Source: an uncultured Gemmatimonadales bacterium
Lineage (GTDB): Bacteria; Gemmatimonadota; Gemmatimonadetes; Longimicrobiales; RSA9
Assembly (NCBI GenBank): GCA_963786235.1
Contig: CAWAYJ010000003.1
Location: 18,236 to 82,235, forward strand
Length of the DNA stretch: 64,000 nucleotides
Direction: 5' to 3'
A model generated the notes under the pieces. That model had not been told where the DNA came from. It ran no database searches and saw nothing but the letters and a program-made list of their open reading frames with translations. The translations under genes and the position numbers were made by a program. Positions 8,280 through 63,735 of this stretch are shown here, one piece after another; the first letter of the stretch is position 1, and each line of letters begins with the position of its first letter.

Positions 8280-8693
8280 TCAGGCGGCGGCGAGCTCCTC
8301 GAGCAGCTGAGCGGGCGTGCGCGCCGGGATCGGTGAACGGCGGAAGTCCTTCACGTTGCGCGTCGCGACGTAGAGGGCTCCGCACGCTCTCGCGGCCGCG
8401 ACCTGCATCGCGTCTTCGAAGTCCGCCAACGGCAGCGAGGCCGCGAACCGCATGGCATCGGTGTCGGTCGGCGCGACGGCCAGGAACGCGGTCAGGTCGT
8501 TGACGAACCCCCGGGCGTCACCATCGCCCCGGACCGGGCGCAGCAGGTGGTAGAGGTTGGAGAGTGTGTGCCATGCGACGAAGGCGCGGTAGGGCTCGCG
8601 TTCGAAACGGGTCAGCAACGCCGCGGCAGGTTCCGCGTGCGGCGCGCGGTCCAGGGCCACGTCGAGCAGCACGTCGGTGTCGATCAGGATCAA
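8280..8693 (-). CDS. vapC: PIN-domain toxin (VapC-like)
   Basis: ILIDTDVLLDVALDR... plus downstream acidic residues. A likely TTG start at 8693 overlaps the antitoxin stop (TTGA). The exact start is uncertain. Confidence 0.75.
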   Translation of the reverse strand: MILIDTDVLLDVALDRAPHAEPAAALLTRFEREPYRAFVAWHTLSNLYHLLRPVRGDGDARGFVNDLTAFLAVAPTDTDAMRFAASLPLADFEDAMQVAAARACGALYVATRNVKDFRRSPIPARTPAQLLEELAAA

Positions 8694-29835: not shown

Positions 29836-30028
29836 GTCAGCCTCCGGCCGCCGTCGGCCACACCACGCCGCCGGGCCGGTCGAGAGATGGAATCGCGAGA
29901 AAGTTCCCCGAAATCGCCCCGCGAAAGGTCAGGAAATACCCTACTGAAGTGAAGCAAGTTTTCCATACGTTGCGGCGTTCCGTTTCCTGCCGCAGACGAT
30001 AACACCGTCACAGCAAGGGGACCAGTTG

Positions 30029-31510
30029 ATGGAACGCGAGAGCGCGAAGGCACCGGCGAGCGACGCGGCTGTTGCGGCTGCCCCGGTGCGGAGCGCGGCC
30101 GTCGACTACGACGACCGCATCGTGAGGATGTTCCTGGGCGCCGTGGTTCTGTGGGGTGCGGTGGGCATGCTGGTGGGCGTGGTGATCGCGCTGCAGATCG
30201 CGTGGTGGCCGGCGAACCTGGGGTTGCCGTGGACGACGTTCGGGCGGTTGCGTCCGCTGCACACGAACGCGGTGATCTTCGCGTTCGCGGGCAACGTCTG
30301 TTTCATGGGCATTTACTACTCGACGCAGCGGCTGCTGAAAGTCCGGATGTGGAGCGACCTGCTGTCGCGGATCCACTTCTGGGGTTGGCAGGCGATCATC
30401 GTGGCGGCGGCCATCACGTTGCCGCTGGGGATGACGCAGTCGAAGGAGTACGCGGAGCTGATCTGGCCGATCGACGTGGCGATCGCGATCGTGTGGGTGA
30501 TCTTCGGCATCAATTTCTTCGGCACGATCGCGGTGCGGAAGGTCAAGCACCTGTACGTCGCACTGTGGTTCTACATGTCGTTCGTGATCACGATCGCGGT
30601 GCTGCACATTGGCAACAGCCTGGCGATCCCGGCGACGTTGACGCGATCGTACCCCATCTACTCGGGTCTGACCGACGCGTTGGTGCAGTGGTGGTACGGG
30701 CACAACGCGGTGGGCTTCTTCCTGACCACGCCGTTCCTCGGGCTGATGTACTACTTCCTGCCGCGGGCGGCGGAGCGACCGGTCTACAGCTACCGGCTCT
30801 CCATCATCCATTTCTGGGGCCTGGTGTTCCTCTACATCTGGGCGGGGCCGCACCACCTGCTGTACTCGGCGCTGCCGGAATGGGCGCAGACTGTGGGCAT
30901 GGTGTTCAGCATCATGCTGCTGGCGCCGTCGTGGGGCGGCATGCTGAACGGGCTGCTGACGCTGCGCGGCGCGTGGTACAAGTTGCGGACTGACCCGGTG
31001 CTCAAGTTCATGGTGGTGGCGGTGAGCTTCTACGGCATGAGCACGTTCGAGGGGCCGATGATGTCGATCCGCGCGGTGAACGCGCTGTCGCACTACACGA
31101 ACTGGGTGATCGGGCACGTGCACTCGGGCGCGCTGGGCTGGGTCGGCATGATCTCGTTCGGCGTCGTGTACTGGCTGACGCCGCGGCTGTACAACCGGCC
31201 GCTGGCGTACCCGAAGTGGGCGACGACGCACTTCTGGCTGGCGACGATCGGGATCGTGCTCTACACGGTGTCGATGTGGGCGGCCGGCCTGATGGAGGGG
31301 CTGCAATGGCGGCAGATCGCGGAGACCGGTCAGCTGGCGAACCCGATCTTCGTGGACATCGTGCACCGGCTCGCGCCCTTCTACTGGCTGCGCCTGGCGG
31401 GCGGCGTGATGTACCTGACCGGCATGCTGATGCTGGCGTGGAACGTGACCCGCACGGCGCGCGGTGGTCCGGCGCCCGCGGCGGACCTGGCGGCCCCGGT
31501 CGCGGCCTGA
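30029..31510 (+). CDS. ccoN: cbb3-type cytochrome c oxidase subunit I
   Basis: 493 aa, 12+ TM, with heme-copper His ligands in CcoN-type context (HFWG, GHVHSGALGW). AAGGGGA Shine-Dalgarno 8 nt upstream. Confidence 0.92.
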   Translation: MERESAKAPASDAAVAAAPVRSAAVDYDDRIVRMFLGAVVLWGAVGMLVGVVIALQIAWWPANLGLPWTTFGRLRPLHTNAVIFAFAGNVCFMGIYYSTQRLLKVRMWSDLLSRIHFWGWQAIIVAAAITLPLGMTQSKEYAELIWPIDVAIAIVWVIFGINFFGTIAVRKVKHLYVALWFYMSFVITIAVLHIGNSLAIPATLTRSYPIYSGLTDALVQWWYGHNAVGFFLTTPFLGLMYYFLPRAAERPVYSYRLSIIHFWGLVFLYIWAGPHHLLYSALPEWAQTVGMVFSIMLLAPSWGGMLNGLLTLRGAWYKLRTDPVLKFMVVAVSFYGMSTFEGPMMSIRAVNALSHYTNWVIGHVHSGALGWVGMISFGVVYWLTPRLYNRPLAYPKWATTHFWLATIGIVLYTVSMWAAGLMEGLQWRQIAETGQLANPIFVDIVHRLAPFYWLRLAGGVMYLTGMLMLAWNVTRTARGGPAPAADLAAPVAA

Positions 31511-31528
31511 ACCCGGCGAGGTCGAACA

Positions 31529-32338
31529 ATGGCTGACAACAAGCAGGCGAGTGGCGAAAGCGAGAAGGGCTACAGCCAGTTCCACCGCAGTTTCTTCGAG
31601 GGCCGGTCCGGCGTGTTCGCGGTCGGGATGACGATCGCGATCCTGATCGGCGGGATGGTCGAGATCATCCCGATGTACTCGGCGAAGGCGGGCCCGGAGC
31701 GGGCCGACTGGGTGACGCCCTACACGCCGCTGGAAGTCGCCGGGCGCGACATCTACATCCGCGAAGGCTGCTACCTCTGCCACTCGCAGATGATCCGGCC
31801 GATGCGGGCCGAGCTGCTCCGCTACGGCGAGTGGACCCGCGCACCCGAGTACCAGTACGACCGGCCGTTCCTGCTCGGCTCGCGCCGCATGGGGCCGGAC
31901 CTGCAGCGCGTCGGTGGCAAGTACCCGGACGCGTGGCATTTCGAGCACATGCGTGACCCGCGCAGCACATCGCCGGGCAGCGTGATGCCGACCTACCCGT
32001 GGCTGCACGAGAAGAGCATCGACCCGGCCGACGTACGCGCGTCGGTGGTCGCGCTGAAGCGAGTCGGCACGCCGTACACCGACGAGCAGGTGGCGTCGGT
32101 CGCGGACAGCCTGACGGCGCAGGGCACGCGCATCGCGCAGAGCCTCGCTACGACCGGCATCCAGACGGAGCCGAACCGGGAGATCATAGCGCTGATCGCG
32201 TACCTGCAGCGGCTCGGCCAGGATGGCAAGCGCCACCTCGAGGCGCAGCAGACGGGCGCGGCAGGAAGCTCGGCCGCGGCAGCCGCGCCCGCGGCCGCGG
32301 CGCCGGCGACGGAGCGGCAGCCCGGAGGCGGGCAATGA
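31529..32338 (+). CDS. ccoO: cbb3-type cytochrome c oxidase subunit II (monoheme), with Ala/Gly-rich C-terminal extension
   Basis: [14 protein letters not shown] heme site, FixO-type N-terminal TM, roughly 40-aa low-complexity tail. Confidence 0.9.
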
Positions 32339-32514
32339 ACCCGCTGCTTCACGAGGCGGCCGGCTCGGTGCGGATGGGCTGGCTGCTGGGTCTCATGACC
32401 GTGGTCTTCCTGGCGTTGTTCATCGCATGGATCGCGTGGGCGTACGCGCCGCGGCGCAAGGCCGCCATGGACGAGTACGCCCGGCTGCCCCTGGACGACG
32501 GAGGCGAAGCGTGA
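32335..32514 (+). CDS. ccoQ: cbb3 oxidase small subunit CcoQ/FixQ-like
   Basis: 59 aa with a single TM ([23 protein letters not shown]). ATGA overlap with the ccoO stop. Confidence 0.65.
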
Positions 32515-33077
32515 GCAAGGAAACGAACCGTCTGCTCGGCCACGCGGATGAGGCGGACGGGATCGAGGAATACGACAACCCGCTTCCGGACTGGTGGCTC
32601 GGCCTGTTCTGGCTGACGATTATCTGGGCGTTCGCATACGCGGTACACTACCATTTCATCGCGCACCGCTCCTACCAGAAGGAGCTGGCGGCCGAGATGG
32701 CGGCCGCCGCCGTGCGCTGGCCCGCGCAGGAGACGGGCGGCGCCTCGCTGTCGTTCGCGCCCGAGGCGGTCGCGGCGGGCGAGGCGATCTTCAACCAGAA
32801 CTGTGTGGTCTGCCACGGCCAGGACATGAAGGGCGGCATCGGGCCGAACCTGCTCGATCCCGACTGGATCCACGGCGGCACGGCCGCCGACGTCGTGCGC
32901 ACCATCACGGAGGGCGTGCCGGAGAAGGGCATGCTGACCTGGGGGCCGATCCTCGGGCCGGAGAAGATCAACCAGGTCGCGGCCTACGTGATCACGAAGA
33001 ACGCGGAGGCGCTGGGTCGGGCGCCGGAGTCGTACCTGGGTGGGGGAACCGCGGCGCCGGACACGGCGTCGAACTGA
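32511..33077 (+). CDS. ccoP: cbb3 oxidase subunit III-like, monoheme CcoP
   Basis: GTGA overlap with the ccoQ stop. FixP N-terminal motif ([28 protein letters not shown]). Only one CxxCH (CVVCH). Confidence 0.8.
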
Positions 33078-33080
33078 ATG

Positions 33081-33226
33081 CGGGTGGCGGGAGTGGAGGC
33101 GGAGGCGTTTGCGGGGCCGGGAGCGGGAGCGGCGGGAGCGGGATGGGAGCGGGAGCGTCCGCACCCGCCGCACCCGCAAACGCGCCCGCAAACGCCTCCG
33201 CCTCCGCCCCCGCCCCCCGAATCCCT
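33081..33226. repeat. GC-rich palindromic repeat element, copy A (full, two arms)
   Basis: Left core GGAGGCGGAGGCGTTTGCGG at 33095-33114. Its exact reverse complement CCGCAAACGCCTCCGCCTCC is at 33186-33205. The flanking G-rich and C-rich arms are imperfectly complementary. Confidence 0.85.
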
Positions 33227-33262
33227 TCAACCCGTGATCGAACCGCGGTAAGGTAGAAATAG

Positions 33263-34612
33263 ATGCTCGGATTCAGTGGGACCCGGGAGTGGGTGTATCC
33301 GCAGTCCATTCGTGGGCGGTGGATGACGCTCCGGCGCTGGACGTTCTTCGGGCTGCACATCGTGCTGTTCGTACTGCCGTGGTTCACGCTGAACGGGCAC
33401 CCGCTGCTGAGGGTGGACCTGCCGGCGCGGCGGCTGTTCCTGTTCGGCCAGATCTACACGGCGTCGGACACGATCTTCCTGCTGCTGCTGCTTCTGTTCC
33501 TGGCGTTCCTGCTGTTCTTCGCTACGGCGATCCTGGGGCGCGTGTGGTGCGGGTACGCGTGTCCGCAGACGGTCTTCCTCGAGACCTGGATCCGGCCGAT
33601 CGAGCTGTGGATCGAGGGCGACCGGTCAAGGCGGAAGCGCCGGGACGCGGCGGGCCTCTCGTTCGACCTGGTCTGGCGCAAGGTCGTGAAATGGCTCCTC
33701 TTCGGCGCGGTCTCGCTGCTTCTGGGCATGGCGTTCATGTCCATTTTCGCGGGGGCGCGCGAGCTGTGGACGGGGCGGGCCGGCCCGGTCGAGTACACGC
33801 TCGTCCTGATCATCGCGGGCGCGTTCTTCCTCGACTTCGTCTGGTTCCGGGAGCAGTTCTGCAACTATCTCTGCCCGTACGCCCGGTTCCAGAGCGCGCT
33901 GGCCGATGACCACAGCCTGACGGTCACGTATGACATCGGCCGGGGCGAGCCGCGCGGCCACGGTCCGGCGGTTGCGGCGGCGGGCCGCTGCATCGAGTGC
34001 AGCAAGTGCGTCGCGGTGTGTCCGCAGGGGATCGACATCCGGAACGGCTTCCAGCTCGAGTGCATCCAGTGCGCGCGCTGCATCGATGCGTGCACGTCGG
34101 TGATGGAGCCACTCGGGCACCGGACGCTGGTGCAGTACAGCACGATCGCGGCGAGCGAGGGCCGGCCGGTCCGGAAGATGCGCGGGCGCACGATCGTGTA
34201 CGGCGGTCTCATGACCGCGCTCGTCGCCGCGTCCATCACGCTGTTGGTGACGCGGACGCCTTTCGAGGCGACCGTGAACCGGGCGCCCGGCTCGCTCTTC
34301 ACGATCGATGCCGACGGTTATGTCCGGAACACGTTCCTGTTGAGCGTGACCAACAACGACCCGTCGGTGGACGAGCAGGTGTACCAGGTTTCGGTGGACG
34401 GCCTGGACGGCGCCGAGGTGCTGACCGAGCCGGTCCGGCTCCGCTCGATGGAGTCGCGCGTCGTGCCGCTGATCGTCCGGGTGCCGCAGACGCCGGGACT
34501 CGCGCGCACGGTGGCGCTGCACGTGCACGTCACGGGCGACCGTTCACAGGTCATGCTGGAGACCACCTTCAAGAGTGGATCGGCCCTCAATGAAGAGACC
34601 TCCCGACCCTGA
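33263..34612 (+). CDS. ccoG: cytochrome c oxidase accessory protein CcoG/FixG (4Fe-4S)
   Basis: CGYACPQ and CIECSKCVAVCPQGIDIR...CIQCARCIDAC ferredoxin motifs. Confidence 0.9.
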   Translation: MLGFSGTREWVYPQSIRGRWMTLRRWTFFGLHIVLFVLPWFTLNGHPLLRVDLPARRLFLFGQIYTASDTIFLLLLLLFLAFLLFFATAILGRVWCGYACPQTVFLETWIRPIELWIEGDRSRRKRRDAAGLSFDLVWRKVVKWLLFGAVSLLLGMAFMSIFAGARELWTGRAGPVEYTLVLIIAGAFFLDFVWFREQFCNYLCPYARFQSALADDHSLTVTYDIGRGEPRGHGPAVAAAGRCIECSKCVAVCPQGIDIRNGFQLECIQCARCIDACTSVMEPLGHRTLVQYSTIAASEGRPVRKMRGRTIVYGGLMTALVAASITLLVTRTPFEATVNRAPGSLFTIDADGYVRNTFLLSVTNNDPSVDEQVYQVSVDGLDGAEVLTEPVRLRSMESRVVPLIVRVPQTPGLARTVALHVHVTGDRSQVMLETTFKSGSALNEETSRP

Positions 34613-34778
34613 CACGGGCGCCGCCGCCCGCCCGCTCGCGATCCGCGCGGACTGGATCTGGCCGGTCGCCATCATCGTCGCCCTGCTGATCGTGGTCGCC
34701 GTCAACGCCGCCTACATCTGGGTCGCGGTGTCCGGCGCGGACGATGTCGTACCGTCCTACGTCACCGAAGACCGCTGA
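34590..34778 (+). CDS. short FixH-like membrane protein
   Basis: 62 aa. WIWPVAIIVALLIVVAVNAAYIWVAVSG resembles the FixH N-terminal TM. It sits between ccoG and ccoI and lacks the usual periplasmic domain. Confidence 0.5.
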   Translation: MKRPPDPDTGAAARPLAIRADWIWPVAIIVALLIVVAVNAAYIWVAVSGADDVVPSYVTEDR

Positions 34779-34800
34779 GCCCCGCCGGGGCTCCGCGTCC

Positions 34801-37110
34801 ATGACGGAGTCCGCGCGGTCGGACTCCGTTGACGTTTCGCGCAGCGCGCGCTGCCCGCATTGCGGCGCGGCGGTCGAGGGCGCGGAAGACGCGTACTGCT
34901 GCCACGGCTGCGAGCTGGCCGCCGAGATCATCCGGGACGCGGGCCTCGAGCGTTATTACGCGGAACGCGAGACGTGGGCGCCACGGCCGAGCGGGAAGGC
35001 GCCAGGTTGGAGCGCCGCGCCCGTGCACGAGCTCGAGGACGGCACCTGCGAAACGCGCCTCCACATCGACGGCCTGCGCTGCGCATCGTGCGTCTGGGTC
35101 ACCGAGAACGTGCTCGCCGCTACCGGCGGCGTGGTCGATGCGCACGTCAGCTACGCCACCGGCCGCGCCACCGTGCGCTGGGACCCGCACGCGATCGACC
35201 TCGATGGCGTCGCCAACCGGATCGCGCAGCTCGGCTACCGGCCGCGCCCGCTGGGCGAGGAACGCGCGCCCGACCGCGACCTGCTGGTCCGGCTCGGCGT
35301 CGCCACGTTCGCCGCGCTCAACGTCATGCTCATCTATGCGTCGCTCTACGCCGGCTGGTGGAGCGGCATGGCGCCGCGCTTCGTCGCGCTCTTCGACTGG
35401 ACCGCGCTCGCGCTCGCGACACCGGTCGCGCTCTGGTGCGCCGAGCCGTTCTACCGCGGCGCCATGGGCGGGCTCCGCCACCGCGTGCTGCACATGGACC
35501 TGCCCATCGCGATCGCGGTGGCTGTTCTGTACGTCCACGGACTTTGGGCGACGCTCGCCGGCGCGCACGCCTACCTCGACTCGCTCACCATGCTCGTCGC
35601 GCTGCTGCTCGCGGGCCGCGTGCTCGAGGGGCGCGGCCGGCGTCGCGCGGCCGAAGCCGCGGTCGCGCTCGCAGCGTCACTGCCGAACACCGCACGGCGT
35701 CGTGCAGGCGACGCGGTCGAGCGCGTGCCCGCGCAGGATCTCGCCGCCGACGACGTCATCCTCGTCGGGCCAGGCGAGGAGGTCGCGGCGGACGGCATCG
35801 TGCTCGCGGGCAAGGGGTCGCTCAACCGCGCTCTGGTGACGGGCGAGTCGGAGCCGGCGTCGATCGGCGCGGGCGACCGCGTCGTGGCGGGCACCGCGCT
35901 CATCGATGGCGCGGTCGAGATCACCGTGCAGGCGGCCGGCAGCGACACGCTGATCCAGCGCATGGCCGCCGAGCTCCGCGAGTCGGCGGACCGCGGCGCG
36001 AGGCCCGACGCCGCCGACCGCATCGCGCCCTGGTTTACCGCGGGCACACTCACTGTCGCGGCCATAACGTTCGGCGTGTGGCTCGCCCTGGCCGGGACCG
36101 GCCGCGCCCTCGAGGCGACCGTCGCCGTGCTCGTGGTCGCGTGTCCCTGCGCCCTCGCGCTCTCCCGTCCATTGTCCGCCGCCGCCGGCCTCGGCGCCGC
36201 CGCGCGACGCGGCATCTTCTTCCGCTCCGCCGACGCGCTGCTCGACCTCGCCACCGTGGACGTCATGGCGCTGGACAAGACGGGCACCGTCACGGAGGGC
36301 GAGATCCGGATCACGGAGGCGAGCGACGTCGCCCTCCGCATCGCGTCCGGGCTCGAACGGTTCAGCGTGCACCCCGTCGCCCGGGCCATCGTCGATGAAG
36401 CCGTGCGACGCGGCATCCCGCTGCCACTTGCGGCCGATGTCGAAGAAACGCCCGGCCGCGGCGTGACCGGCGTCGTCGACGAAACTCGCTGGAGCCTCGC
36501 GGCCGGCGACCCGCGCGAGCTCGTGCTCGAGTCCGCCGAGGAGCGTCACGTGCTCCGCATCGGCGATGTCTCCCGCGAGGATTCCGGGCGCATCGTCCGC
36601 GCGCTCAGGGACGCCGGCTTCCGGCTCACCCTGCTGAGCGGCGACCGGAGCGAGGTCGCGGCCAGCGTGGGCGTCGAGACCGGCCTCGACGAGACGATCG
36701 GACAGCTCGACCCCGAACAGAAGGCCGCGTGGGTGCGGGCACGGCGCGACGAGGGCAACCGCGTCGCGTTCGTCGGCGACGGGCTCAATGACGGACCCGC
36801 CCTCGGCGCCGCCGACGTCGGCATCGCCATGGGCGCCGGCGCCGCGACCAGCGTCCTCGTCGCCGACGCCGTCATCGCACTCCGCTCGCTCCGGCCCGTC
36901 CTCGCCGCCGTCCGGGCCGGCCGCGCCTGCCGGCGCGCCATCCGGGTGAGCCAGACGCGCTCGATCGTGTATAATGTCCTTGCGGTCAGCGCGGCCGCGC
37001 TGGGTTGGGTCAACCCGCTGGTTGCCGCCGTCCTGATGCCGCTCTCCAGCGGCATGGTCATCTGGACCGCCTCGCGCGTCGAGGCGGCCGTGCGCAAGGC
37101 GGAGGCATGA
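34801..37110 (+). CDS. ccoI: copper-translocating P1B-type ATPase CcoI/FixI
   Basis: N-terminal CPHCG...CCHGCE metal-binding domain, CPC, DKTGTVT and GDGLNDGPAL motifs. Confidence 0.92.
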   Translation: MTESARSDSVDVSRSARCPHCGAAVEGAEDAYCCHGCELAAEIIRDAGLERYYAERETWAPRPSGKAPGWSAAPVHELEDGTCETRLHIDGLRCASCVWVTENVLAATGGVVDAHVSYATGRATVRWDPHAIDLDGVANRIAQLGYRPRPLGEERAPDRDLLVRLGVATFAALNVMLIYASLYAGWWSGMAPRFVALFDWTALALATPVALWCAEPFYRGAMGGLRHRVLHMDLPIAIAVAVLYVHGLWATLAGAHAYLDSLTMLVALLLAGRVLEGRGRRRAAEAAVALAASLPNTARRRAGDAVERVPAQDLAADDVILVGPGEEVAADGIVLAGKGSLNRALVTGESEPASIGAGDRVVAGTALIDGAVEITVQAAGSDTLIQRMAAELRESADRGARPDAADRIAPWFTAGTLTVAAITFGVWLALAGTGRALEATVAVLVVACPCALALSRPLSAAAGLGAAARRGIFFRSADALLDLATVDVMALDKTGTVTEGEIRITEASDVALRIASGLERFSVHPVARAIVDEAVRRGIPLPLAADVEETPGRGVTGVVDETRWSLAAGDPRELVLESAEERHVLRIGDVSREDSGRIVRALRDAGFRLTLLSGDRSEVAASVGVETGLDETIGQLDPEQKAAWVRARRDEGNRVAFVGDGLNDGPALGAADVGIAMGAGAATSVLVADAVIALRSLRPVLAAVRAGRACRRAIRVSQTRSIVYNVLAVSAAALGWVNPLVAAVLMPLSSGMVIWTASRVEAAVRKAEA

Positions 37111-39029: not shown

Positions 39030-39125
39030 ACCCCATATCCCCCGATCCCCCCCATCCCCCTGATCCCCCTTCATCGAACGGTCGGCGTCCATGAAGGGGG
39101 ATATGGGGATGTGGGGGATAGCGGC
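39030..39125. repeat. C5/G5-rich palindromic element (ATCCCCC / GGGGGAT units)
   Basis: Perfect 12-bp stem ATCCCCCTTCAT / ATGAAGGGGGAT around a 16-nt loop. The arms extend imperfectly as repeated CCCCAT/ATCCCCC units. Confidence 0.7.
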
Positions 39126-43179: not shown

Positions 43180-44367
43180 ATGGAGACATCGACACATACC
43201 GCCGCGATGGCGGCCGCCGGACCGCTCGGCCTCGTCCTGACCGGGGGCGGCGCGCGCGGCGCGTTCCAGGCCGGCGTCCTCAAGTGGATCGCCGAGCGCT
43301 ACCCGACCCTGAACGTGCCGGTCCTGACCGGCGTGTCGGCCGGTGCGCTGAACGTGGCCTGCATCGCCGCGCATCCCGGCGGCTTTGGCGCCGGAGTGGA
43401 CCGGCTCCACCGCCTGTGGACCGATCTGACGGCGGAGCGCGTGTTCCGTGTGGACGCCCGCAGCGTCGGCACCCACGCACTCGGTTGGGGCGTCCGACTC
43501 ATGTCGGGTGGAAGCCGGGCGCAGCACGTGCACGGCTTCCTCGACACGAGCCCGCTCCGCGACTACCTGCACGCCGTGCTCCACGTCGAGGACTCGATCA
43601 TCACAGGGATCGGCAGGAACCTCGAGGAAGGCAAGCTCAAGGCGGTCGCGGTCGTCGCCACCTCGTACTCGACCAACCAGACGGTCGTGTTCCTCGAGGG
43701 CTCCGACATCGTGCCCTGGACCCGGCCCCAGCGCCGCGCCGAGAAGACCCGGCTCACCATCGAGCACGTCATGGCGTCCGCATCGCTGCCGCTGTTCTTC
43801 CCGGCAATCCGTATCGGCAGCGAGTGGTTCGGCGACGGCGGGATCCGGCTGGCCGCCCCGCTCTCGCCCGCGCTCCACCTCGGCGCGAACCGCGTGCTCG
43901 CCATCTCGACGCGCTACCCCCGGTCGCGAGCCGAGAGCGACGTCCCCTCGATCCCCGGCTACCCGCCGCCCGCGCAGGTCCTCGGCTCGCTCCTCAACGC
44001 CGTGTTCCTCGACCTGATCGACCAGGATGTGTTACGGCTGGAGCGCATCAACGAGTTGCTCGAGCGGCTGCCGCCCGAGCAGCGCGAAGGGATGCGCGTC
44101 GTCGACTTCCTCGTCATCCGGCCCTCGCGCGACCTCGGTCGCCTCGCCGCCGAGTTCGAGCCCGACCTGCCCCGCGCGTTCCGCTTCATGACGCGCGGAC
44201 TCGGAACGCAGGAACAGAAGAGCCCCGACATGCTCAGCCTGCTGATGTTCCAGCACGACTACATCAAGCGGCTGATCGAGATCGGCGAGCACGACGCCGC
44301 CGCGCGCGCGGACGAGATCGACGCCTTCCTCGCTCCGCTCCTGACCGCCGCACGATCCGCATCCTGA
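43180..44367 (+). CDS. patatin-like phospholipase
   Basis: GGGARGAFQAGVL oxyanion motif, GVSAGAL (GxSxG) and DGG catalytic Asp motif (FGDGGIR). Confidence 0.88.
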   Translation: METSTHTAAMAAAGPLGLVLTGGGARGAFQAGVLKWIAERYPTLNVPVLTGVSAGALNVACIAAHPGGFGAGVDRLHRLWTDLTAERVFRVDARSVGTHALGWGVRLMSGGSRAQHVHGFLDTSPLRDYLHAVLHVEDSIITGIGRNLEEGKLKAVAVVATSYSTNQTVVFLEGSDIVPWTRPQRRAEKTRLTIEHVMASASLPLFFPAIRIGSEWFGDGGIRLAAPLSPALHLGANRVLAISTRYPRSRAESDVPSIPGYPPPAQVLGSLLNAVFLDLIDQDVLRLERINELLERLPPEQREGMRVVDFLVIRPSRDLGRLAAEFEPDLPRAFRFMTRGLGTQEQKSPDMLSLLMFQHDYIKRLIEIGEHDAAARADEIDAFLAPLLTAARSAS

Positions 44368-44391
44368 TGCAGGCGACGTCGCGGGGCCGCG

Positions 44392-45579
44392 CTACCGGCG
44401 CGGGCCGAGCGTCCGGTCCCAGTTCAGGACGCCGTACTTGCGCAGCACGTCCATCGTGCGGTCCAGCGGCAGCGCTTCCACCACGCCGCGCGGACCCTCG
44501 ACCGACTCCGCCTTGAAGAGCGAGTTGTAGACCGCCTCCTCCGTCGCTTCCGCGACCGCCTGGAAGAGCGGCGTCATCGCATCGTTCGACAGGTCCTCGA
44601 GCGTGCGCACCGGCGAGCCGCCCGTCCGCCGCACCGATTCCGCCGCCGAGAACGCGATCACGTAGTCGCCCGAGCCGTTGCTCTCCGTCGCGCCCGTCCG
44701 GCCCAGCCCGATCAGCGCGCGCGACGCGAGCCGCTCGAGGTTCCGGGAATCCAGCGGCGCATCCGTCGCCACCACCATCATGATGCTGCCGTCCGGCGTC
44801 GGATCCGAGCCCGCGCCGCCCGTCTCGCGCCGGAACGAGTACTGGCCCAGCTCGCGGCCGACCGGCGCACCGTTCACCGTCAGGATCCCGCCGAAATTCG
44901 ACTGCACCAGCACGCCCACGGTGTACCCGCCCGCCGCCGCCGGCGTCACCCGCGAGCTCGTCCCGATCCCGCCCTTCCAGCCGAACGCGATCGTGCCCCG
45001 GCCCGCGCCCACCGAGCCCTCCTCCACCGCGCCGCCGCTCGCCGACTCCAGTGCGCGTACCACGTGCTCCGGCAGGATCGGCCGCGCGCGAATGTCGCTC
45101 AGCGTGCCGTCGTTCGTCTCGCCAACCACCGGGTTGATCGAGCGCACGTTCCCCATCCCCGGCCGCTCGAGAAGCCACGCCACCATCGCGTCCGCCGCAC
45201 GCCACACGCACAACGTGCACGTCAGCAGGATCGGCGTCTCCAGCTCGCCCAGCTCCCGCAGCTGCGTCACGCCCACCAGCTTGCCGAACCCGTTCCCCAC
45301 CACCAGCGCCGCCGGCGGCCGCTCGTGGTACCAGTCTTCGCCCGGTGGCAGGATCGCCGTCACCCCCGTGTTCGCGCCGTTCCCCGTGACCGTCGCGTGC
45401 CCGACCCGCACACCCGGCACATCCGTGATTGCGTCGTTCGGGCCCGGCGTGAAGACACCGACGATGACGCCGGCCTCGCGAGCCCGCGGCCGCGGCGCTG
45501 TTGTCGCATCCTGTCCCGACACGGCTGATGCTCCGATGGTGGTGAGCAGGAAGAGGAGAAACGAAAGGGTCGTGCGCAT
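44392..45579 (-). CDS. DmpA/P1 (S58) family aminopeptidase
   Basis: 395 aa with a signal peptide. NDAITDVPGVRVGH, TGVTAIL and GETNDG motifs typical of L-aminopeptidase/D-esterase. Confidence 0.7.
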   Translation of the reverse strand: MRTTLSFLLFLLTTIGASAVSGQDATTAPRPRAREAGVIVGVFTPGPNDAITDVPGVRVGHATVTGNGANTGVTAILPPGEDWYHERPPAALVVGNGFGKLVGVTQLRELGELETPILLTCTLCVWRAADAMVAWLLERPGMGNVRSINPVVGETNDGTLSDIRARPILPEHVVRALESASGGAVEEGSVGAGRGTIAFGWKGGIGTSSRVTPAAAGGYTVGVLVQSNFGGILTVNGAPVGRELGQYSFRRETGGAGSDPTPDGSIMMVVATDAPLDSRNLERLASRALIGLGRTGATESNGSGDYVIAFSAAESVRRTGGSPVRTLEDLSNDAMTPLFQAVAEATEEAVYNSLFKAESVEGPRGVVEALPLDRTMDVLRKYGVLNWDRTLGPRR

Positions 45580-46853: not shown

Positions 46854-48026
46854 ATGATCCGCAACGCTACGAGAAGAGCGCGGGGGTTGGGCATTGCTGT
46901 CCTGGCTTCCGCCCTCCTGTCGGCGTGCACGGGCGGCACCGAGTTCGTGCAGACGACGTTCCACCCGGTCAGCAGTTATGGCCGGGCGGAGAACGCCGCG
47001 TTCATGAACACGTTCTGGTGGACCATGGGGATCCTGTTCCTGGTCTACTTCCTCGTGATCTACGTCGTGATCCGGTTCCGGGAGCGGCCGGGCATGCCGC
47101 ACCCCGAGCAGGTCCACGGCAACACGAAGCTCGAGATCCTGTGGACGGTGATTCCCGCGATCATCACCGTTTTCATCATGGTGCCCGCGGTGAAGGGCGT
47201 GTTCGCGCTGCAGCGCGCGCCGGTGCCGGGCGCGCTCGAGATCGAGGTGATCGGGCACCAGTGGTGGTGGGAGTTCCGCTACCCGGCGGAAGGCGTTGTC
47301 ACGGCGCAGCAGTTCTACGTACCGATCGGTCGCGAGGTGCACCTGCGGCTGAGCTCGGCGGACGTGATCCACAGCTTCTGGGTCCCGCGCATCGGCGGCA
47401 AGCGGGACGTGCTGCCGCAGCCGCGCGTGGCGGAAGGCGAGCGGCCGCGTCCCAACCACATCGTGTTCACGGTCGACTCGGCCGGGGCCTGGCGCGGCCA
47501 GTGCGCGGAATACTGCGGCGAGGGTCACGCGATCATGGCGATGCAGGCCGTGGCCGTGCCGCCCGCGGAATTCGATGAATGGGTGCGCTCGATGAAGGAC
47601 ACGCCGGCGTCGCCGGCGGGCGAGCCCGCGGCCGAGCAGGCGGCCGCTTCCGCCGCTGCGCAGCCCGCCGCCGCGCCGCAGGACACGGCCGCGCCCGCGG
47701 CGCCGGCCGCGCCGCAGACACTCGAAGAGCAGGGGAAGCAGATCTTCCTGAGCAAGGCGTGCATCGCGTGCCACTCGGTGGCGAACACGACGGCGAAGGG
47801 GATGGTGGGTCCGAACCTGACCCGGTTCGGCGCCCGGCCGTACGTGGGTGCGGGTGCGCGTCCGAACACGGTGGAGAACGTGATCCAGTGGATCCACAAC
47901 CCGCGGTCGCTCAAGGCGGGCGCGCTGATGCCGGGCGCGCAGGAGGCGGCGGGTGGTTTCCCGCCGACCGGGTTGACGGATGAGGAGATCCGGGCGGTGG
48001 CGGCCTGGCTGGTCAGCCTCAAGTAA
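46854..48026 (+). CDS. ctaC: cytochrome c oxidase subunit II with fused C-terminal cytochrome c (caa3 type)
   Basis: CuA site (HSFWVPRIGGKRD, CAEYCGEGHAIM) and a C-terminal CIACH heme c motif. Confidence 0.92.
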   Translation: MIRNATRRARGLGIAVLASALLSACTGGTEFVQTTFHPVSSYGRAENAAFMNTFWWTMGILFLVYFLVIYVVIRFRERPGMPHPEQVHGNTKLEILWTVIPAIITVFIMVPAVKGVFALQRAPVPGALEIEVIGHQWWWEFRYPAEGVVTAQQFYVPIGREVHLRLSSADVIHSFWVPRIGGKRDVLPQPRVAEGERPRPNHIVFTVDSAGAWRGQCAEYCGEGHAIMAMQAVAVPPAEFDEWVRSMKDTPASPAGEPAAEQAAASAAAQPAAAPQDTAAPAAPAAPQTLEEQGKQIFLSKACIACHSVANTTAKGMVGPNLTRFGARPYVGAGARPNTVENVIQWIHNPRSLKAGALMPGAQEAAGGFPPTGLTDEEIRAVAAWLVSLK

Positions 48027-48053
48027 TCGCGCGCAAACGAGGAACGAATAACG

Positions 48054-49868
48054 ATGGCCACCATCGAGGCACACGTCCCGAGCGTCCCCGCGGCCGGCAA
48101 GCCGCGCTCGTGGCTCTGGGACCTGATGACCACGGTCGACCACAAGAAGATCGGTCTGTTGTACGGCGCCACCGCGCTCGTCTGGTTCGTGGTGGGTGGG
48201 GTCGAGGCGCTGCTGATGCGGACGCAGCTCGCCAAGGCCGAGAACACGTTCATCTCCGCGGACCTGTACAACCAGCTGTTCACGATGCACGGCACGACCA
48301 TGGTCTTCCTGGTCGGCATGCCGATCGCCGTGGCGCTCTTCAACATCATCATGCCGCTCCAGATTGGCGCGCGCGACGTCGCGTTCCCGCGGCTCAACGC
48401 GCTCTCCTACTGGATCTTCCTGTTCGGCTCGCTGTTCATGAACTTCAGCTGGCTGCTCGGCCAGGCGCCCAACGGCGGCTGGTTCGGCTACGCCAACCTG
48501 ACCACGTCGCAGTACTCGCCCGGGCTCAACATCGACTTCTGGGTGCTCGGCCTGCAGGCGCTCGGCATCGCTTCCATCATGGGCGGCATCAACTTCGTGA
48601 CCACCATCATCAACCTGCGCGCGCCGGGCATGCGACTCATGCGCATGCCGCTCTTCACGTGGATGAGCTTCATTCAGAGCATCCTCGTGATCACCGCGCT
48701 GCCCATCCTCGCCGTGGCGCTGTTCCTGGTCACGTTCGACCGCTTCTGGGGCACCAACTTCTTCGCGGTCGCGGCCGGCGGCGACCCCGTCCTCTGGCAG
48801 CACCTGTTCTGGTTGTTCGGCCACCCCGAGGTCTACATCCTGATCCTGCCCGCGTTCGGCATCCTGTCGGAGGTCATCCCGACGTTCTCCCGCAAGCCGA
48901 TCTTCGGCTACTCCGTGATGGTCTACTCGGCGGCGCTCATCGCGTTGATCGGCTGGGGCGTCTGGGGCCACCACATGTACGCGGTCGGCATGGGCCCGGT
49001 CGCCGATTCCTATTTCACGATCAGCACGCTCATCATCGCGATCCCGACCGGCGTCAAGATCTTCAACTGGATCGCGACGATGTGGGGCGGCAAGATCAAG
49101 TTCAACACGGCCATGGCCTACGCCGTCGCCGCCGTCGTCACGTTCACGATGGGCGGCGTATCCGGCGTGATGCACTCGACCACGCCCCATGACTGGCAGC
49201 AGACGGACACCTATTTCGTGGTCGCCCACTTCCACTACGTGCTGCTGGGCGGCCTCATCATGGGCCTGTTCGCCGGCTTCTACTACTGGTACCCGAAGGT
49301 CACCGGCCGGCTGATGTCGGAGAAGCTCGGCAAGTGGAGCTTCTGGACCTACATCATCGGCATGCACATGACGTTCTTCCCCATGCACTGGACCGGGCTG
49401 CTGGGGATGCCGCGGCGCGTGTTCACATACTCCGCGGAGCTGGGCGTCGACCGGCTCAACCAGGTTTCCACCGCCGGTGCGTTCCTCTCCGCCGTCGGCG
49501 TGCTCTTCCTCGTGATCAACATGATCCGCAGCCTGAAGAAGGGCGAGCCGGCCGGCCGCAACCCGTGGAACGCGGCCACGCTCGAGTGGGCGACCGAGTC
49601 GCCGCCCGTCGCGCACAATTTCAACCGCGTGCCGACCGTGCACAGCCGCGAGCCGCTCTGGGTCGAGCGCGAGCAGATCGAGACGACCGTGTTCGCCGAG
49701 CCCGAGCCGATGCACATGCCGCCACCCTCGTACTGGCCCATCCTGACGGCCGTGGGCGTGGTCGCCACGTTCGCCCTGTTCTTCGCGCCCATGTGGTGGG
49801 CGCCGCTCATCGGGCTGGGCTGGGTAGGCGTGTGCATCATCAACTGGGCGTACGAACCGATTCACTGA
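48054..49868 (+). CDS. ctaD: cytochrome c oxidase subunit I
   Basis: 604 aa, WFFGHPEVYILILP-type motif (LFWLFGHPEVYILILPAFG), HFHYVL. Confidence 0.95.
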   Translation: MATIEAHVPSVPAAGKPRSWLWDLMTTVDHKKIGLLYGATALVWFVVGGVEALLMRTQLAKAENTFISADLYNQLFTMHGTTMVFLVGMPIAVALFNIIMPLQIGARDVAFPRLNALSYWIFLFGSLFMNFSWLLGQAPNGGWFGYANLTTSQYSPGLNIDFWVLGLQALGIASIMGGINFVTTIINLRAPGMRLMRMPLFTWMSFIQSILVITALPILAVALFLVTFDRFWGTNFFAVAAGGDPVLWQHLFWLFGHPEVYILILPAFGILSEVIPTFSRKPIFGYSVMVYSAALIALIGWGVWGHHMYAVGMGPVADSYFTISTLIIAIPTGVKIFNWIATMWGGKIKFNTAMAYAVAAVVTFTMGGVSGVMHSTTPHDWQQTDTYFVVAHFHYVLLGGLIMGLFAGFYYWYPKVTGRLMSEKLGKWSFWTYIIGMHMTFFPMHWTGLLGMPRRVFTYSAELGVDRLNQVSTAGAFLSAVGVLFLVINMIRSLKKGEPAGRNPWNAATLEWATESPPVAHNFNRVPTVHSREPLWVEREQIETTVFAEPEPMHMPPPSYWPILTAVGVVATFALFFAPMWWAPLIGLGWVGVCIINWAYEPIH

Positions 49869-49884
49869 CAGGGGACAGACGAAC

Positions 49885-50496
49885 GTGAGTCAGACGGCAG
49901 CGGCAATGGCCACCCACGGCGGGGCTCCCGCGGAACACACCGCGACGGGCCTGAGCATGCTCAAGCTGGGGTTCTGGATCTTCCTCGGCTCCGAGACGCT
50001 CTTCTTCGGGTCGCTCATCTCGACCTACATGGTCTACAAGCACGAGAGCGTGGTCGGGCCCTATCCCACCGAGATCCTGAACATCCCGCTCACCAGCATC
50101 AGTACCTTCGTGCTGCTGATGAGCTCGCTCGCCGTGGTCATTGCGCTCGACGCGCTGCAGCGCGGGCTCCGCCAGCGCGCCCTGTTCTGGATCATGGCCG
50201 TCGTCGTGCTCGGCTCCATGTTCCTCGGCTTCCAGGCCTTCGAGTTCACGCACTTCTACCACGAAGGCCTGACCCTGCAGAAGAACCTCTTCGGCTCGAC
50301 CTTCTTCGTGCTGACCGGGTTCCACGGTGCGCACGTGACGGTCGGCGTGATCTGGATCCTGATTCTGTGGATGGATGCGTTCCGCGGTAATCTGGGGCCG
50401 GCCAACGCGCTCAAGTTCGAGATCGCGGGTCTGTACTGGCACTTCGTGGATATCGTGTGGATCGCGATCTTCACGCTGATCTACCTCATCAACTGA
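49885..50496 (+). CDS. ctaE: cytochrome c oxidase subunit III
   Basis: 203 aa, FFVLTGFHGAHVTVG motif. Confidence 0.9.
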   Translation: MSQTAAAMATHGGAPAEHTATGLSMLKLGFWIFLGSETLFFGSLISTYMVYKHESVVGPYPTEILNIPLTSISTFVLLMSSLAVVIALDALQRGLRQRALFWIMAVVVLGSMFLGFQAFEFTHFYHEGLTLQKNLFGSTFFVLTGFHGAHVTVGVIWILILWMDAFRGNLGPANALKFEIAGLYWHFVDIVWIAIFTLIYLIN

Positions 50497-51726: not shown

Positions 51727-51808
51727 GCCGCCCCTCTCCCGCCGCCCCCTCTCCCGCCGCCCCCGCAAACGCTCCCGCGAACGCCTCCGCCTCCGCCCCC
51801 GCCCCCCG
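51727..51808. repeat. GC-rich repeat element, copy B (single C-rich arm)
   Basis: CCCGCAAACGCTCCCGCGAACGCCTCCGCCTCCGCCCCCGCCCCCC, preceded by duplicated CGCCCC(C)TCTCCCGC. It lies between convergent genes. Confidence 0.8.
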
Positions 51809-51815
51809 TTTCCGT

Positions 51816-52949
51816 TCAGAACCCGAGTCCCCTCACCAGCCCCGCAATCCCGAACCCCAGATACGTCCCGACCGCGTAGCCGAGCAGACCCACGATGACG
51901 CCCGGCAGCACGAGCTGCGGCCATTCGCGAGCGACGGCGACGGCGAGCGCGCTGGGCGGCCCGCCGACCGCGGCCTGCGAGGCGACGGAAAGCGAGGCGA
52001 CGTCGATCCGGAACAGCTTGCCGAATCCGAAGACAACGAGGCCGTGCACGGTCACGATGATGAGCGTGAAGTAGAAGACGTCGACGCCGACCGCCATGAT
52101 CTCGGCGGCGCGCGAGTGGATCCCGATCACGACGAAGAAGAACACGAGCGCGAAATTACCGAACTGCAGGGAGCCGGCCACCTTTCCGAGCGGCGTGAGG
52201 TGGCCGGCGACGAGTGCGAACGTGGTCAGCCACAGCACTGCGGGCACGCCGGGCACGAGCCGGCCGGCGGCGTTTGCCAGGAGCACGAGCAGGAGGCCGG
52301 ACGAGACGAGCAGCGCCATGTCGACGGTGTTGAGCGTGATGCCGGAGAAATACGGGTGCTCGACATCGGTCGCGCCCGCGACCGGATCGGCCGGCTTCGG
52401 GATGGGTGGGTAGAAGCGCGCCAGCCAGACGGGCAGGAGCAGGGTCGCGCCCATCCATAGCGCGGTCGCCGCGGCGTCCGCCGCGTTGGCGGCGGCGAAC
52501 AGGGTGGGCGGGATGCCGAGCCCGCGGCTGACGGACACGAAGTTGACGGATCCGCCGGTGTAGGTCCCGGTGAACGCGCCGGCGAGGCTGGCGTTGTCGG
52601 CGCCGAATCTGCTCGCGAAGATGAACGCGCCGATCAGCGCGCCGAGCGCGGTGCCGACGCAGGCGAGGCCGAACGCGCCGAGCACACGGCGGCCGACGCG
52701 TCGCACATCGGAGATGTTGACGGCGAGCAGCAGCCATGCGATCGCGACGTAGGTGATCGGCCCCTCGATGGCGTCGTACACGGGCGAGGCGGCGGGCACG
52801 GCGCCGAGGTTGGAGAGTGCTGCGCCGATGATGATGGCGAGCATGCCGGCCCCGATCTTCGAGAGCACCGGCACGTGGCGGTCGAGCCAGAAGCAGAGCG
52901 CGACGGTTACGGCGATCACGGTCGCGAGCGGCAGCGGTGCCTGGATCAT
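51816..52949 (-). CDS. DUF819-family integral membrane protein
   Basis: 377 aa, about 10-12 TM. The N-terminus LCFWLDRHVPVLSKIGAGMLAIIIGAALSNLG is typical of DUF819. Confidence 0.65.
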   Translation of the reverse strand: MIQAPLPLATVIAVTVALCFWLDRHVPVLSKIGAGMLAIIIGAALSNLGAVPAASPVYDAIEGPITYVAIAWLLLAVNISDVRRVGRRVLGAFGLACVGTALGALIGAFIFASRFGADNASLAGAFTGTYTGGSVNFVSVSRGLGIPPTLFAAANAADAAATALWMGATLLLPVWLARFYPPIPKPADPVAGATDVEHPYFSGITLNTVDMALLVSSGLLLVLLANAAGRLVPGVPAVLWLTTFALVAGHLTPLGKVAGSLQFGNFALVFFFVVIGIHSRAAEIMAVGVDVFYFTLIIVTVHGLVVFGFGKLFRIDVASLSVASQAAVGGPPSALAVAVAREWPQLVLPGVIVGLLGYAVGTYLGFGIAGLVRGLGF

Positions 52950-57967: not shown

Positions 57968-58224
57968 GCGGTTACGGCCTCCTCCCGGAGTGCGGGACTC
58001 ACTCGGCTCGGCGCGGAGACTTGCACGCAGCCAGGACCGCCCGCTTCCGCCCGGGCGTCACTACGAAGCGCGACCCGTCCCGCCGCGCGGCGGGCGCCGA
58101 CTCCGAATGCCACCCCCCCGGACGAAACGATGGGGACACCGGGGGAACGTTCGGGGTGGGCGGCGAGCGGAAATGATAGGGAACGTTCGGGGGCGGCGCC
58201 AACGGCGCGGGGATGGGAGGCGTG

Positions 58225-58389
58225 CCGGGTGGGGCGAGATGCGGGGTTCGGGGAGCGGAGGCGGAAGCGGACGCGTTTGCGGGGGACGGAGCGGGAGCGG
58301 GCATGGTCCGCTCCCGCCCCCGCCGCCCCCGCCAACGCTCCCGCAAACGCCTCCGCCTCCGCCCCCTCCCGCAATCCCTCCCCACCCGG
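58225..58389. repeat. GC-rich palindromic repeat element, copy C (full, two ~80-nt arms)
   Basis: Left arm: CCGGGTGGGG...GGAGCGGAGGCGGAAGCGGACGCGTTTGCGGGGG.... Right arm: ...CCCGCAAACGCCTCCGCCTCCGCCCCC...CCCCACCCGG. Centre near 58307. It ends 11 nt before the M28 ATG. Confidence 0.85.
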
Positions 58390-58400
58390 TACTCTACGAC

Positions 58401-61619: not shown

Positions 61620-61781
61620 GGGCGGAGGGAACCGTCATGGCGGGCCGGTGTCTGCAACTGCTGGCCCCGGCCCGATCATGACCGTCCCGCGCGGGGCACG
61701 GTGAATCTTCTCCGACGTCGCGGCCCGCGTTCCCGGCCGCGCGGGTCCGCACCTTCGCACCCCGACTCACGGAGGCAACGG

Positions 61782-63657: not shown

Positions 63658-63666
63658 CGGATCGTT

Positions 63667-63735
63667 GGGCGGGGGCGGAGGCGGAGGCGTTTGCGGGATG
63701 GGGAGCGGGGGCGGCGGGAGCGGGGGGGGACCCGG
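63667..63735. repeat. GC-rich repeat element, copy D (single G-rich arm)
   Basis: GGGCGGGGGCGGAGGCGGAGGCGTTTGCGGGATGGGGAGCGGGGGCGGCGGGAGCGGGGGGGG, 10 nt after the ggt stop. Confidence 0.85.

Follow-up and report, generated by a model that had tools for sequence, protein, structure and literature searches.

Dispersed hairpin repeats are known in bacteria. The ERIC or IRU elements of enterobacteria and the Correia elements of Neisseria are imperfect palindromes of about 100-150 nt in transcribed intergenic regions, whose RNA folds into hairpins that can make flanking messages more or less stable; they have an ordinary base composition and defined terminal inverted repeats, accompanied in Correia elements by TA duplications. 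The STRR heptamers of heterocystous cyanobacteria are dispersed 7-nt arrays found in intergenic DNA and in the hairpins of stable RNAs. To our knowledge, the only well-understood partnership between repeats of this kind and a gene is that of REPINs with the RAYT transposase. We also know of no function given to the S23p or IVS proteins since their discovery in 23S rRNA early in the 1990s, so that they have been an orphan family for 30 years.

In the ORF-carrying intervening sequences (IVSs) of 23S rRNA in Leptospira, Coxiella and Brucella, terminal inverted repeats pair into a stem whose loop contains an S23p (PF05635) ORF with short tandem heptamers before it, and RNase III cuts the stem; the function of S23p is unknown, and a mobile-element origin of IVSs has been proposed, not shown (PMC4990558). 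PF05635 is structurally related to Avd of the diversity-generating retroelements (DGRs) (PMC10053308). REPs, for their part, are defined by a GTAG or CGTC end tag (PMC3733652).

Here we tie an orphan repeat to this orphan gene family: the arms of a Gemmatimonadota repeat enclose an S23p/PF05635 gene, and the same layout of gene and arms surrounds PF05635 genes in cyanobacteria, in an alphaproteobacterium and in a cultured Gemmatimonadota strain. Our subject is a palindromic element (copy A) in the ccoP-ccoG spacer of a 64-kb stretch of DNA, which we call the window, together with its relatives inside and outside that stretch (Table 1).

A hairpin between ccoP and ccoG

Copy A was singled out as a GC-rich palindrome inside a cco cluster, and the order of the genes around it, ccoNOQP-ccoG-ccoI-ccoS, bears this out: the element runs from the ccoP stop codon to within 40 nt of the ccoG ATG. 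The complementarity described in the original prediction is exact, in that the 20-nt core GGAGGCGGAGGCGTTTGCGG at 33095-33114 on the forward strand has its perfect complement at 33186-33205, and the arms as a whole are 83% complementary according to a repeat finder. The proposed long RNA hairpin is indeed predicted, the computed fold being a stem of ~64 bp that reaches -122.1 kcal/mol, compared with -85.5 +/- 4.4 kcal/mol in shuffles (z = -8.4), and the view that copy A has no coding role is likewise supported. The left arm carries a canonical G-quadruplex (G4) motif at 33113-33153. The right arm has the outer end GGGATTCGGGGGGCGG, and exactly this sequence ends the arm at the IVP locus (L103) described below.

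An intrinsic terminator was considered for copy A and rejected: there is no T/U run, the stem being followed by GAATCCCTTCAACCC, and no terminator-like site was found in 32800-33500. No sigma-70 promoter was found at copy A either. The ccoP gene here encodes a short form of 188 aa that has only one haem c domain, and a PIN-domain gene follows ccoS. The window has two oxidase clusters, the cbb3 cluster (30026-37110) and one of the aa3 type (46854-50496), which comprises COX2 with a cytochrome c domain, COX1 and COX3.

Table 1. Repeat copies and cco genes in the window, with the arms found beside PF05635 genes in other records
Feature	Position or record	Strand	Remarks
Copy A, whole doublet	33078-33222		145 nt, ORF-less; between ccoP and ccoG
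Copy A, G-rich left arm	33078-33141	+	64 nt; directly after ccoP stop codon
Copy A, loop	33142-33158	.	17 nt between arms
Copy A, right arm	33159-33222	-	64 nt; C-rich on +, G-rich on -
ccoN	30026-31510	+	upstream of ccoP
ccoO	31529-32338	+	upstream of ccoP
ccoQ	32335-32514	+	upstream of ccoP
ccoP (FixP, one haem c domain)	32511-33077	+	TGA 33075-33077 abuts copy A
ccoG (FixG)	33263-34612	+	ATG 33263; first gene past copy A; then ccoI-like P-type ATPase, ccoS
Copy B, single arm	51727-51811	-	G-rich on -; directly after TGA of DUF819 gene
Copy C, doublet	58222-58392	.	arms 58246-58306 (+) and 58313-58377 (-); extra outer pairing
Copy D, single G-rich arm	63660-63731	+	2 nt past gamma-glutamyltranspeptidase TAA (stop 63655-63657)
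PF05635 gene arms, L104	metagenome-assembled genome		GCGGAA units
PF05635 gene arms, L105	metagenome contig		CCCGTG/CCCTTG
PF05635 gene arms, L108	metagenome contig		GGCTAA
PF05635 gene arms, L109	metagenome contig		CCCTGC/CCTTGC
PF05635 gene arms, L111	Gemmatirosa kalamazoonensis KBS708 plasmid 1		GGGCAGGA octamers
PF05635 gene arms, L116	Anabaena sp. 90 plasmid, between cas6 and cas4		heptamers AGGTGAC/AGGGAAC
PF05635 gene arms, L117	Azospirillum lipoferum plasmid		short-period purine arms
PF05635 gene arms, L118	Geminocystis plasmid		short-period purine arms
PF05635 gene arms, L119	Nostoc PCC 7120 gamma		downstream arm only; ISL3 transposase upstream

A dispersed family of arms in the window

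Six matches to the core with at most three mismatches were found in the window against 0.05 expected, and none of 100 shuffles reached six. Outside copy A they lie at 51775-51794 (reverse strand, one mismatch), 58263-58282 (forward strand, two mismatches), 58341-58360 (reverse strand) and 63677-63696 (forward strand). A search of the 64 kb with an arm profile returned exactly six arms at four loci (E 3e-13 to 3e-10) and no further arm below E = 1, from which the dispersed repeat family emerges as a genuine one. The core does recur at three other loci, as had been claimed, but two of these, copies B and D, are single arms and not palindromes.

The unit of the family is an arm of ~64 nt, G-rich, C-poor and periodic at 6 nt (self-match at lag 6 of 0.635 vs 0.453 +/- 0.014 in shuffles), which occurs in the window as two inverted doublets (A and C) and two single arms (B and D). 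Its outer end is conserved and reads (T)GA and then ACGGAAWC, or GGGATTC, followed by GGGGGGCGGGGGCGGAGGCGG. A lone arm folds to -17 to -27 kcal/mol only, compared with -122 kcal/mol for the doublet. Copy B, in which the profile places the arm at 51747-51811, fills the gap between a DUF819 gene (51816-52949, reverse strand) and the stop codon (51703) of a convergent forward-strand gene, and copy C, the fold of which over 58215-58395 gives z = -7.1, occupies the divergent spacer between an MFS/TLC-like gene on the reverse strand and an M28 peptidase gene (ATG 58401). The potential to form G-quadruplexes is real: canonical G3N1-7 motifs are present in four of the six arms (A_L, B, C_R and D), and seven of the nine window regions with an absolute G4Hunter score of at least 2 are family arms, the score reaching 2.5, with the reservation that long-read homopolymer errors, seen in the splitting of metH and ggt into several frames, leave the exact lengths of the G runs in the arms uncertain.

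Some other features of the window deserve mention in their own right. The gamma-glutamyltranspeptidase gene (61701-63657) is split into an N-terminal part (61701-62417) and the rest (62278-63657) in overlapping frames, and is either a frameshifted pseudogene or the product of a long-read homopolymer error. A second simple-repeat hairpin, unrelated to the family arms, occupies the divergent spacer of MerR/TipAS and M20 peptidase genes at 39031-39121; there a C-rich arm of 8-9-nt units (CCCCNATC) precedes the complementary G-rich arm (GGGGGATATGGGGATGTGGGGGATAG), in C-then-G order, with G4Hunter scores of -2.68 and +2.32, and short-period hairpins with skewed arms may characterise this genome as a whole. 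At 58142-58193, immediately upstream of doublet C, two copies of GGG(G)AACGTTCGGGG lie 36 nt apart, each containing the perfect palindrome GAACGTTC (58145-58152 and 58181-58188), and the pair may serve as operators for a dimeric regulator.

Insertion behind stop codons

As judged from orthologous sites in relatives, copies A and B are shown to be insertions directly 3' of an ancestral stop codon, copy A being a recent one. The ccoP-ccoG spacer measures 185 nt in the window vs 62, 87 and 90 nt in three relatives whose CcoG proteins are 91, 81 and 78% identical to that of the window, respectively; the flanks of the spacer align (TGA..TGC on the left and TTCAA on the right), and no family arm was found in 36 kb of these three relatives. 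At locus B, 112 nt separate the convergent stop codons in the window vs 8 nt in relatives with a 79% identical DUF819 protein, where the empty site reads TTCTGA-CCTTTCGC-TCA and has the same TTCTGA stop as the window; in a relative with a 96% identical DUF819 protein, the 53 nt past the stop contain no arm. Since both copies are absent from the orthologous sites, both are insertions, and in this sense the mobile-like behaviour that had been suggested for the element finds support. No target-site duplication was found at the two empty sites, A and B.

The G arm is also flush with the upstream stop codon at D (TAA-CGGATCG), at the metH locus described below, and in several metagenome contigs, which read TGA-ACGGAATC, TGA-GAACGG or TGA-ACGGCC. 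G arms start 0-2 nt past the stop at A, B, D, the metH locus, a further locus (L095), Gemmatirosa and L104.

One of the relatives, that with the 81% identical CcoG (L101), has a G-rich ccoP-ccoG spacer (9914-10000), reading GAACCGGGGGCGGGCGGGGTTCGCGAGCCGGGCGGCG...GGGAGCGGCGGGATTGAA; it is loosely like a degenerate single arm and is not significant with the arm profile.

Family arms around a PF05635 gene

Two family arms lie 450 nt apart in a metagenome match (L085), where the order on the gene strand is the end of metH (…HHPEARYFSA, TGA), a G arm, ~90 nt, a PF05635 ORF, a C arm and the ATG of the next gene. The ORF matches PF05635, "23S rRNA-intervening sequence protein" (E 8e-16), and TIGR02436, "four helix bundle protein" (E 2.5e-16). 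The closest homologue of its product is P0122 (86% identical), the nearest solved structure to which is the S23p pentamer 2gsc, and which is encoded in the same layout at L103, on the contig (ERZ25039500:contig_17864) that also carries the window, ~470 kb away. The G arm of L103 (9839-9922; E 1.4e-13) is the best-scoring arm outside the training set, on a par with the training arms, and shares 45 identical nt with window arm C_R, while three tandem C arms (10364-10527) are read through as the Pro/Ala-rich tail of the called protein. These loci show a physical association in which the family arms are the inverted repeats bracketing the gene for the genome's 23S rRNA IVS protein.

Besides the ORF-bearing copy, the 20 kb of L103 hold two further family copies, a doublet in the thyX/nfu divergent spacer (563-694) and a partial G arm (8285-8344) in metH, where it lies in the linker that joins the pterin-binding domain to the B12-cap domain. 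The window genome has 7 loci in the 84 kb examined, comprising three doublets, three single arms and one ORF-bearing copy. Arms are thus arranged singly, as doublets of G arm, loop and C arm, or as brackets around the PF05635 gene between metH and the next gene. The metH gene of L103 (6286-9834) is called as four fragments in different frames, and its frame 0 runs on through the partial arm into the B12 domain; the partial arm may be an in-frame insertion in coding sequence, as with the Rickettsia palindromic elements.

Gene and arms in other genomes

Of the 11 PF05635 genes examined, which come from records of Gemmatimonadota, cyanobacteria and Azospirillum, ten are flanked by inverted short-period arms of at least 34 bits; under the same fixed test none of 66 neighbouring control genes has such arms, the maximum being 25 bits. 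The low-complexity heads and tails of PF05635 proteins (GQGQGQ, GEGEGEG, SASAPAPAPAS, PANASASAP) are translated arms.

Dispersed ORF-less copies were found in three genomes, namely the window genome, that of L104 (two solo arms, one of them flush with a TGA) and Gemmatirosa. BLAST located the arms of the Gemmatirosa kalamazoonensis PF05635 gene in 22 places, 5 and 17 on two megaplasmids, and in no other plasmid record; the 17 probably include weak or partial matches, since a strict search of 300 kb of plasmid 2 gave one further doublet only. Two clear ORF-less doublets were read in Gemmatirosa. One of them exactly spans the gap between two convergent stop codons; in the second, the G arm directly adjoins a TAA, and 5 nt separate the end of the C arm from the following ATG. 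The arms of the Anabaena PF05635 gene occur once and are not dispersed on plasmids, which means that dispersal is not universal. On the Anabaena plasmid (pANA02, record 44265-44633), ~230 nt of purine heptamer repeats lie upstream of the four-helix-bundle gene, which is inside a type I-D CRISPR-cas operon, so that an element of this kind is tolerated within an operon.

Authenticity and distribution of the repeats

The CcoG protein of the window is identical, residue for residue, to one on the ENA contig ERZ25039500:contig_17864 (573 kb), and its homologues are annotated as Gemmatimonadota or Longimicrobiales. The short-read contig of the copy A site begins at window position 33195, inside the right arm, as is expected of a multi-copy repeat. 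An assembly artefact was considered and is ruled out, independent Illumina-based contigs carrying the family; it is also present in independent JGI contigs. A scan of metagenomes with a 24-mer gave 19 loci, ~6 of them chance matches in coding sequences of 62%-GC marine contigs and the rest true or related family members. The corresponding scan of genome contigs with a 20-mer gave 78 single matches in unrelated phyla, none of which fits the arm profile; these are chance matches of a pattern too low in complexity. BLAST of copy A against 72,556 plasmids found no match.

Class membership

The window as a whole has 0 Rfam matches at the gathering score, and the earlier impression that copy A belongs to no described family agrees with this. 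Of the affiliations that had been put forward, membership of the REP class fails on two counts. In place of a self-palindromic unit of 20-40 nt there is a non-palindromic arm of 64 nt that folds weakly alone; the GTAG or CGTC end tag is absent, the outer ends reading (T)GA-ACGGAAWC or GGGATTC and then GGGGGG. No RAYT (PF01797) is found among the called genes of L079 and L103 or the scanned ORFs of the window, 84 kb in all. The feature that agrees is the occurrence in many copies, at 7 loci in the 84 kb examined, of intergenic inverted doublets and singlets. Nor are these classical, IS-derived MITEs, given that no target-site duplication accompanies copies A and B and that the IS3-family element of the window has no similarity to the arms. 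That element (814-1982), which is the only transposase found in the sequence examined, is close to the end of the source contig and is made up of orfA, matching HTH_Tnp_1 (E 1e-25), and orfB, matching rve/rve_3/HTH_21.

An integron attC was rejected as well: the flanking genes are core respiratory genes, there is no integrase and the ends are unlike RYYYAAC/GTTRRRY. A DGR, considered since PF05635 resembles Avd, was rejected for this locus too: no reverse transcriptase is encoded within 10 kb of the L103 PF05635 gene, and PADLOC gave no hit.

The architecture of an IVS is largely present. The long stem of terminal inverted repeats is represented by the 64-nt arms (z -8.4), the full-length copy (L103, L085) has an S23p/PF05635 ORF in its loop, and copy A, with a 17-nt loop and no ORF, is like the short ORF-less IVSs. 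The location is not that of an IVS in helix 25 or 45 of 23S rRNA, since there is no rRNA in the window; all copies lie between protein-coding genes, with one within. Copy A is best filed as a variant of the IVS type of element, an mRNA-borne miniature that belongs to a dispersed family and falls outside REP, MITE, terminator and Rfam classes.

Discussion

Our essential contention, which we regard as probable while leaving it appreciable room for error, is that copy A is a miniature, ORF-less, IVS-like element lodged in an mRNA spacer, and a member of a lineage-specific family of Gemmatimonadota hairpins. It is read in this way because the full-length copy has the architecture of an ORF-carrying IVS, with the ORF in the loop of the stem. 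Only one ORF-bearing copy of the family was seen, at two orthologous loci, and so the association of arms and gene could reflect an incidental landing of either partner in the other. Also to be set against our reading are the complementarity of arms within a doublet, which is no higher than 83%, and the Anabaena arms that are not dispersed on plasmids. A wider proposal is that PF05635 genes mark a widespread and undescribed class of hairpin-embedded elements, whose short-period, strand-skewed arms give rise to genome-specific populations of hairpins and solo arms that lack an ORF and insert directly behind stop codons; in such a REPIN-RAYT-like system without a transposase, the protein would act in trans on its own repeats, and the IVSs of 23S rRNA would be the special case in rRNA. 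This we put forward tentatively, as a possible but rather doubtful extension. In the literature that we searched we found no link between STRR and a four-helix-bundle gene, and nothing connecting four-helix-bundle genes with dispersed repeats, with simple-repeat arms outside rRNA or with Gemmatimonadota repeats.

Copy A is likely to be transcribed together with ccoNOQP, in which case the transcript would form a GC-rich duplex of ~64 bp. By analogy with the stems of rRNA IVSs, this duplex could be a substrate of RNase III or a barrier to 3' exonucleases, and the stable, highly expressed ccoNOQP message would thereby be uncoupled from the ccoGHIS assembly genes. For the host, the element may be near neutral or of low cost. 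The four-helix-bundle protein may bind the arms or the hairpins and be the trans-acting factor of the family. We know of no catalytic activity for the four-helix-bundle fold, and for this reason the protein cannot move DNA by itself. Since some copies lie in the spacers of divergent promoters and one within a coding linker, the evidence favours a family that is in the main selfish or neutral over one that serves as a dedicated regulator, and for the two doublets in divergent promoter spacers a role at 3' ends or in processing makes little sense.

Alternatives to this IVS-like reading differ chiefly in what they make of the gene and of the position behind stop codons. Hairpins and four-helix-bundle gene could be independent, with a mobile gene homing into the loops of existing hairpins that spread by other means, much as IVSs occupy the loops of helices 25 and 45 in 23S rRNA. 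The gene does occupy the loop position at every locus, the arm sequences are wholly different between genomes where the protein is conserved, and Gemmatirosa has a complete small doublet just upstream of its gene and an extra C arm after it. We nevertheless think homing unlikely, because arms adjoin such genes even where no dispersed family is evident, as on the Anabaena plasmid, because no homing enzyme is encoded, and because translation of the arms gives the proteins their low-complexity tails, from which it would follow that arm and ORF evolved together. That the PF05635 neighbour is a coincidence, and the repeat an element of REP/REPIN type that owes its mobility to a RAYT gene at another place in the genome, would suit a population of intergenic, lineage-specific doublets and singlets like those of REPINs (PMC3116915, PMC3337134), and also the insertion polymorphism without target duplication and the density of 7 loci in 84 kb. 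It is made distinctly improbable by an arm that is itself non-palindromic (-17 to -27 kcal/mol vs -122 kcal/mol for the doublet), is 64 nt long instead of 20-40 nt and bears no GTAG/CGTC tag (PMC3733652), and by the facts that PF05635 is the sole gene seen flanked by arms and that an unrelated IS3 is the only transposase in the 84 kb examined.

The starts of G arms 0-2 nt past stop codons at many loci, and the doublets that occupy gaps between convergent or co-directional genes, might instead point to host regulatory structures kept alike by selection or gene conversion, such as terminators lacking a U tract or protectors of mRNA 3' ends. Such structures should not be missing at the orthologous sites of close relatives, nor be placed in divergent promoter spacers (C; L103 563-694) or, as a partial arm, in the metH linker; moreover, there is no T-run and single arms cannot form hairpins, and we hold this explanation to be very unlikely. 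Least credible of all is that the G-rich arm is itself functional, as a former of G-quadruplexes or R-loops on the sense strand or as a C-rich Rho-loading site for antisense or convergent transcripts, with the doublets being secondary. The single arms B, D and L095 are indeed G-rich on the sense strand of the gene that they follow, G4Hunter scores rise to 2.5 with canonical motifs in four of six arms, and every doublet of the family and of Gemmatirosa reads G arm and then C arm; but in related four-helix-bundle elements the C arm comes first or the arms are purine tracts with few G runs, and the perfect duplex of a doublet outcompetes a G4.

If the link between arms and PF05635 genes is causal, it would offer a testable role for a very common orphan protein family, explain the origin of rRNA intervening sequences and add a second kind of gene-plus-repeat partnership to bacterial genomes; the cultured relative Gemmatirosa kalamazoonensis KBS708 makes the causal link open to experiment. 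For annotation, the family accounts for the frequent G- or C-rich "shadow" ORFs and for Pro/Ala-rich or Gly-rich protein tails, and in high-GC soil bacteria it accounts for breaks in short-read assemblies at the ends of genes.

Comparison with known systems

With ERIC/IRU and Correia elements the doublets share the form of an imperfect palindrome of ~100-150 nt inserted in transcribed intergenic DNA, but the arms described here consist of simple repeats with a strand skew, and the two empty sites show no duplication. The likeness to STRR lies in the Anabaena sp. 90 PF05635 gene, which is flanked by heptamer arrays of the STRR kind, although those arms, unlike STRR, are not dispersed on plasmids.

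REPs and REPINs, too, are short repeats that populate intergenic DNA both as inverted doublets and as singlets; they are vertically confined to a lineage and have a single-copy gene flanked by the same repeats (PMC3116915, PMC3337134). The unit described here differs in being non-palindromic, in having no GTAG/CGTC tag and in arms that are two to three times longer, and the gene that it flanks encodes a non-catalytic four-helix-bundle protein, not a Y1 transposase.

From the IVSs of 23S rRNA our elements differ in location, since they lie outside rRNA, between protein-coding genes and flush with stop codons; in their arms, which are 64-nt, G/C-skewed hexamer arrays; and in that these arms recur as a family of many dispersed copies, some of them doublets without an ORF and others single arms. 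What the two have in common is a PF05635 gene in the loop of a long stem, short tandem repeats beside the ORF, the existence of short forms without the ORF, and the fact that both are tolerated inside essential transcripts.
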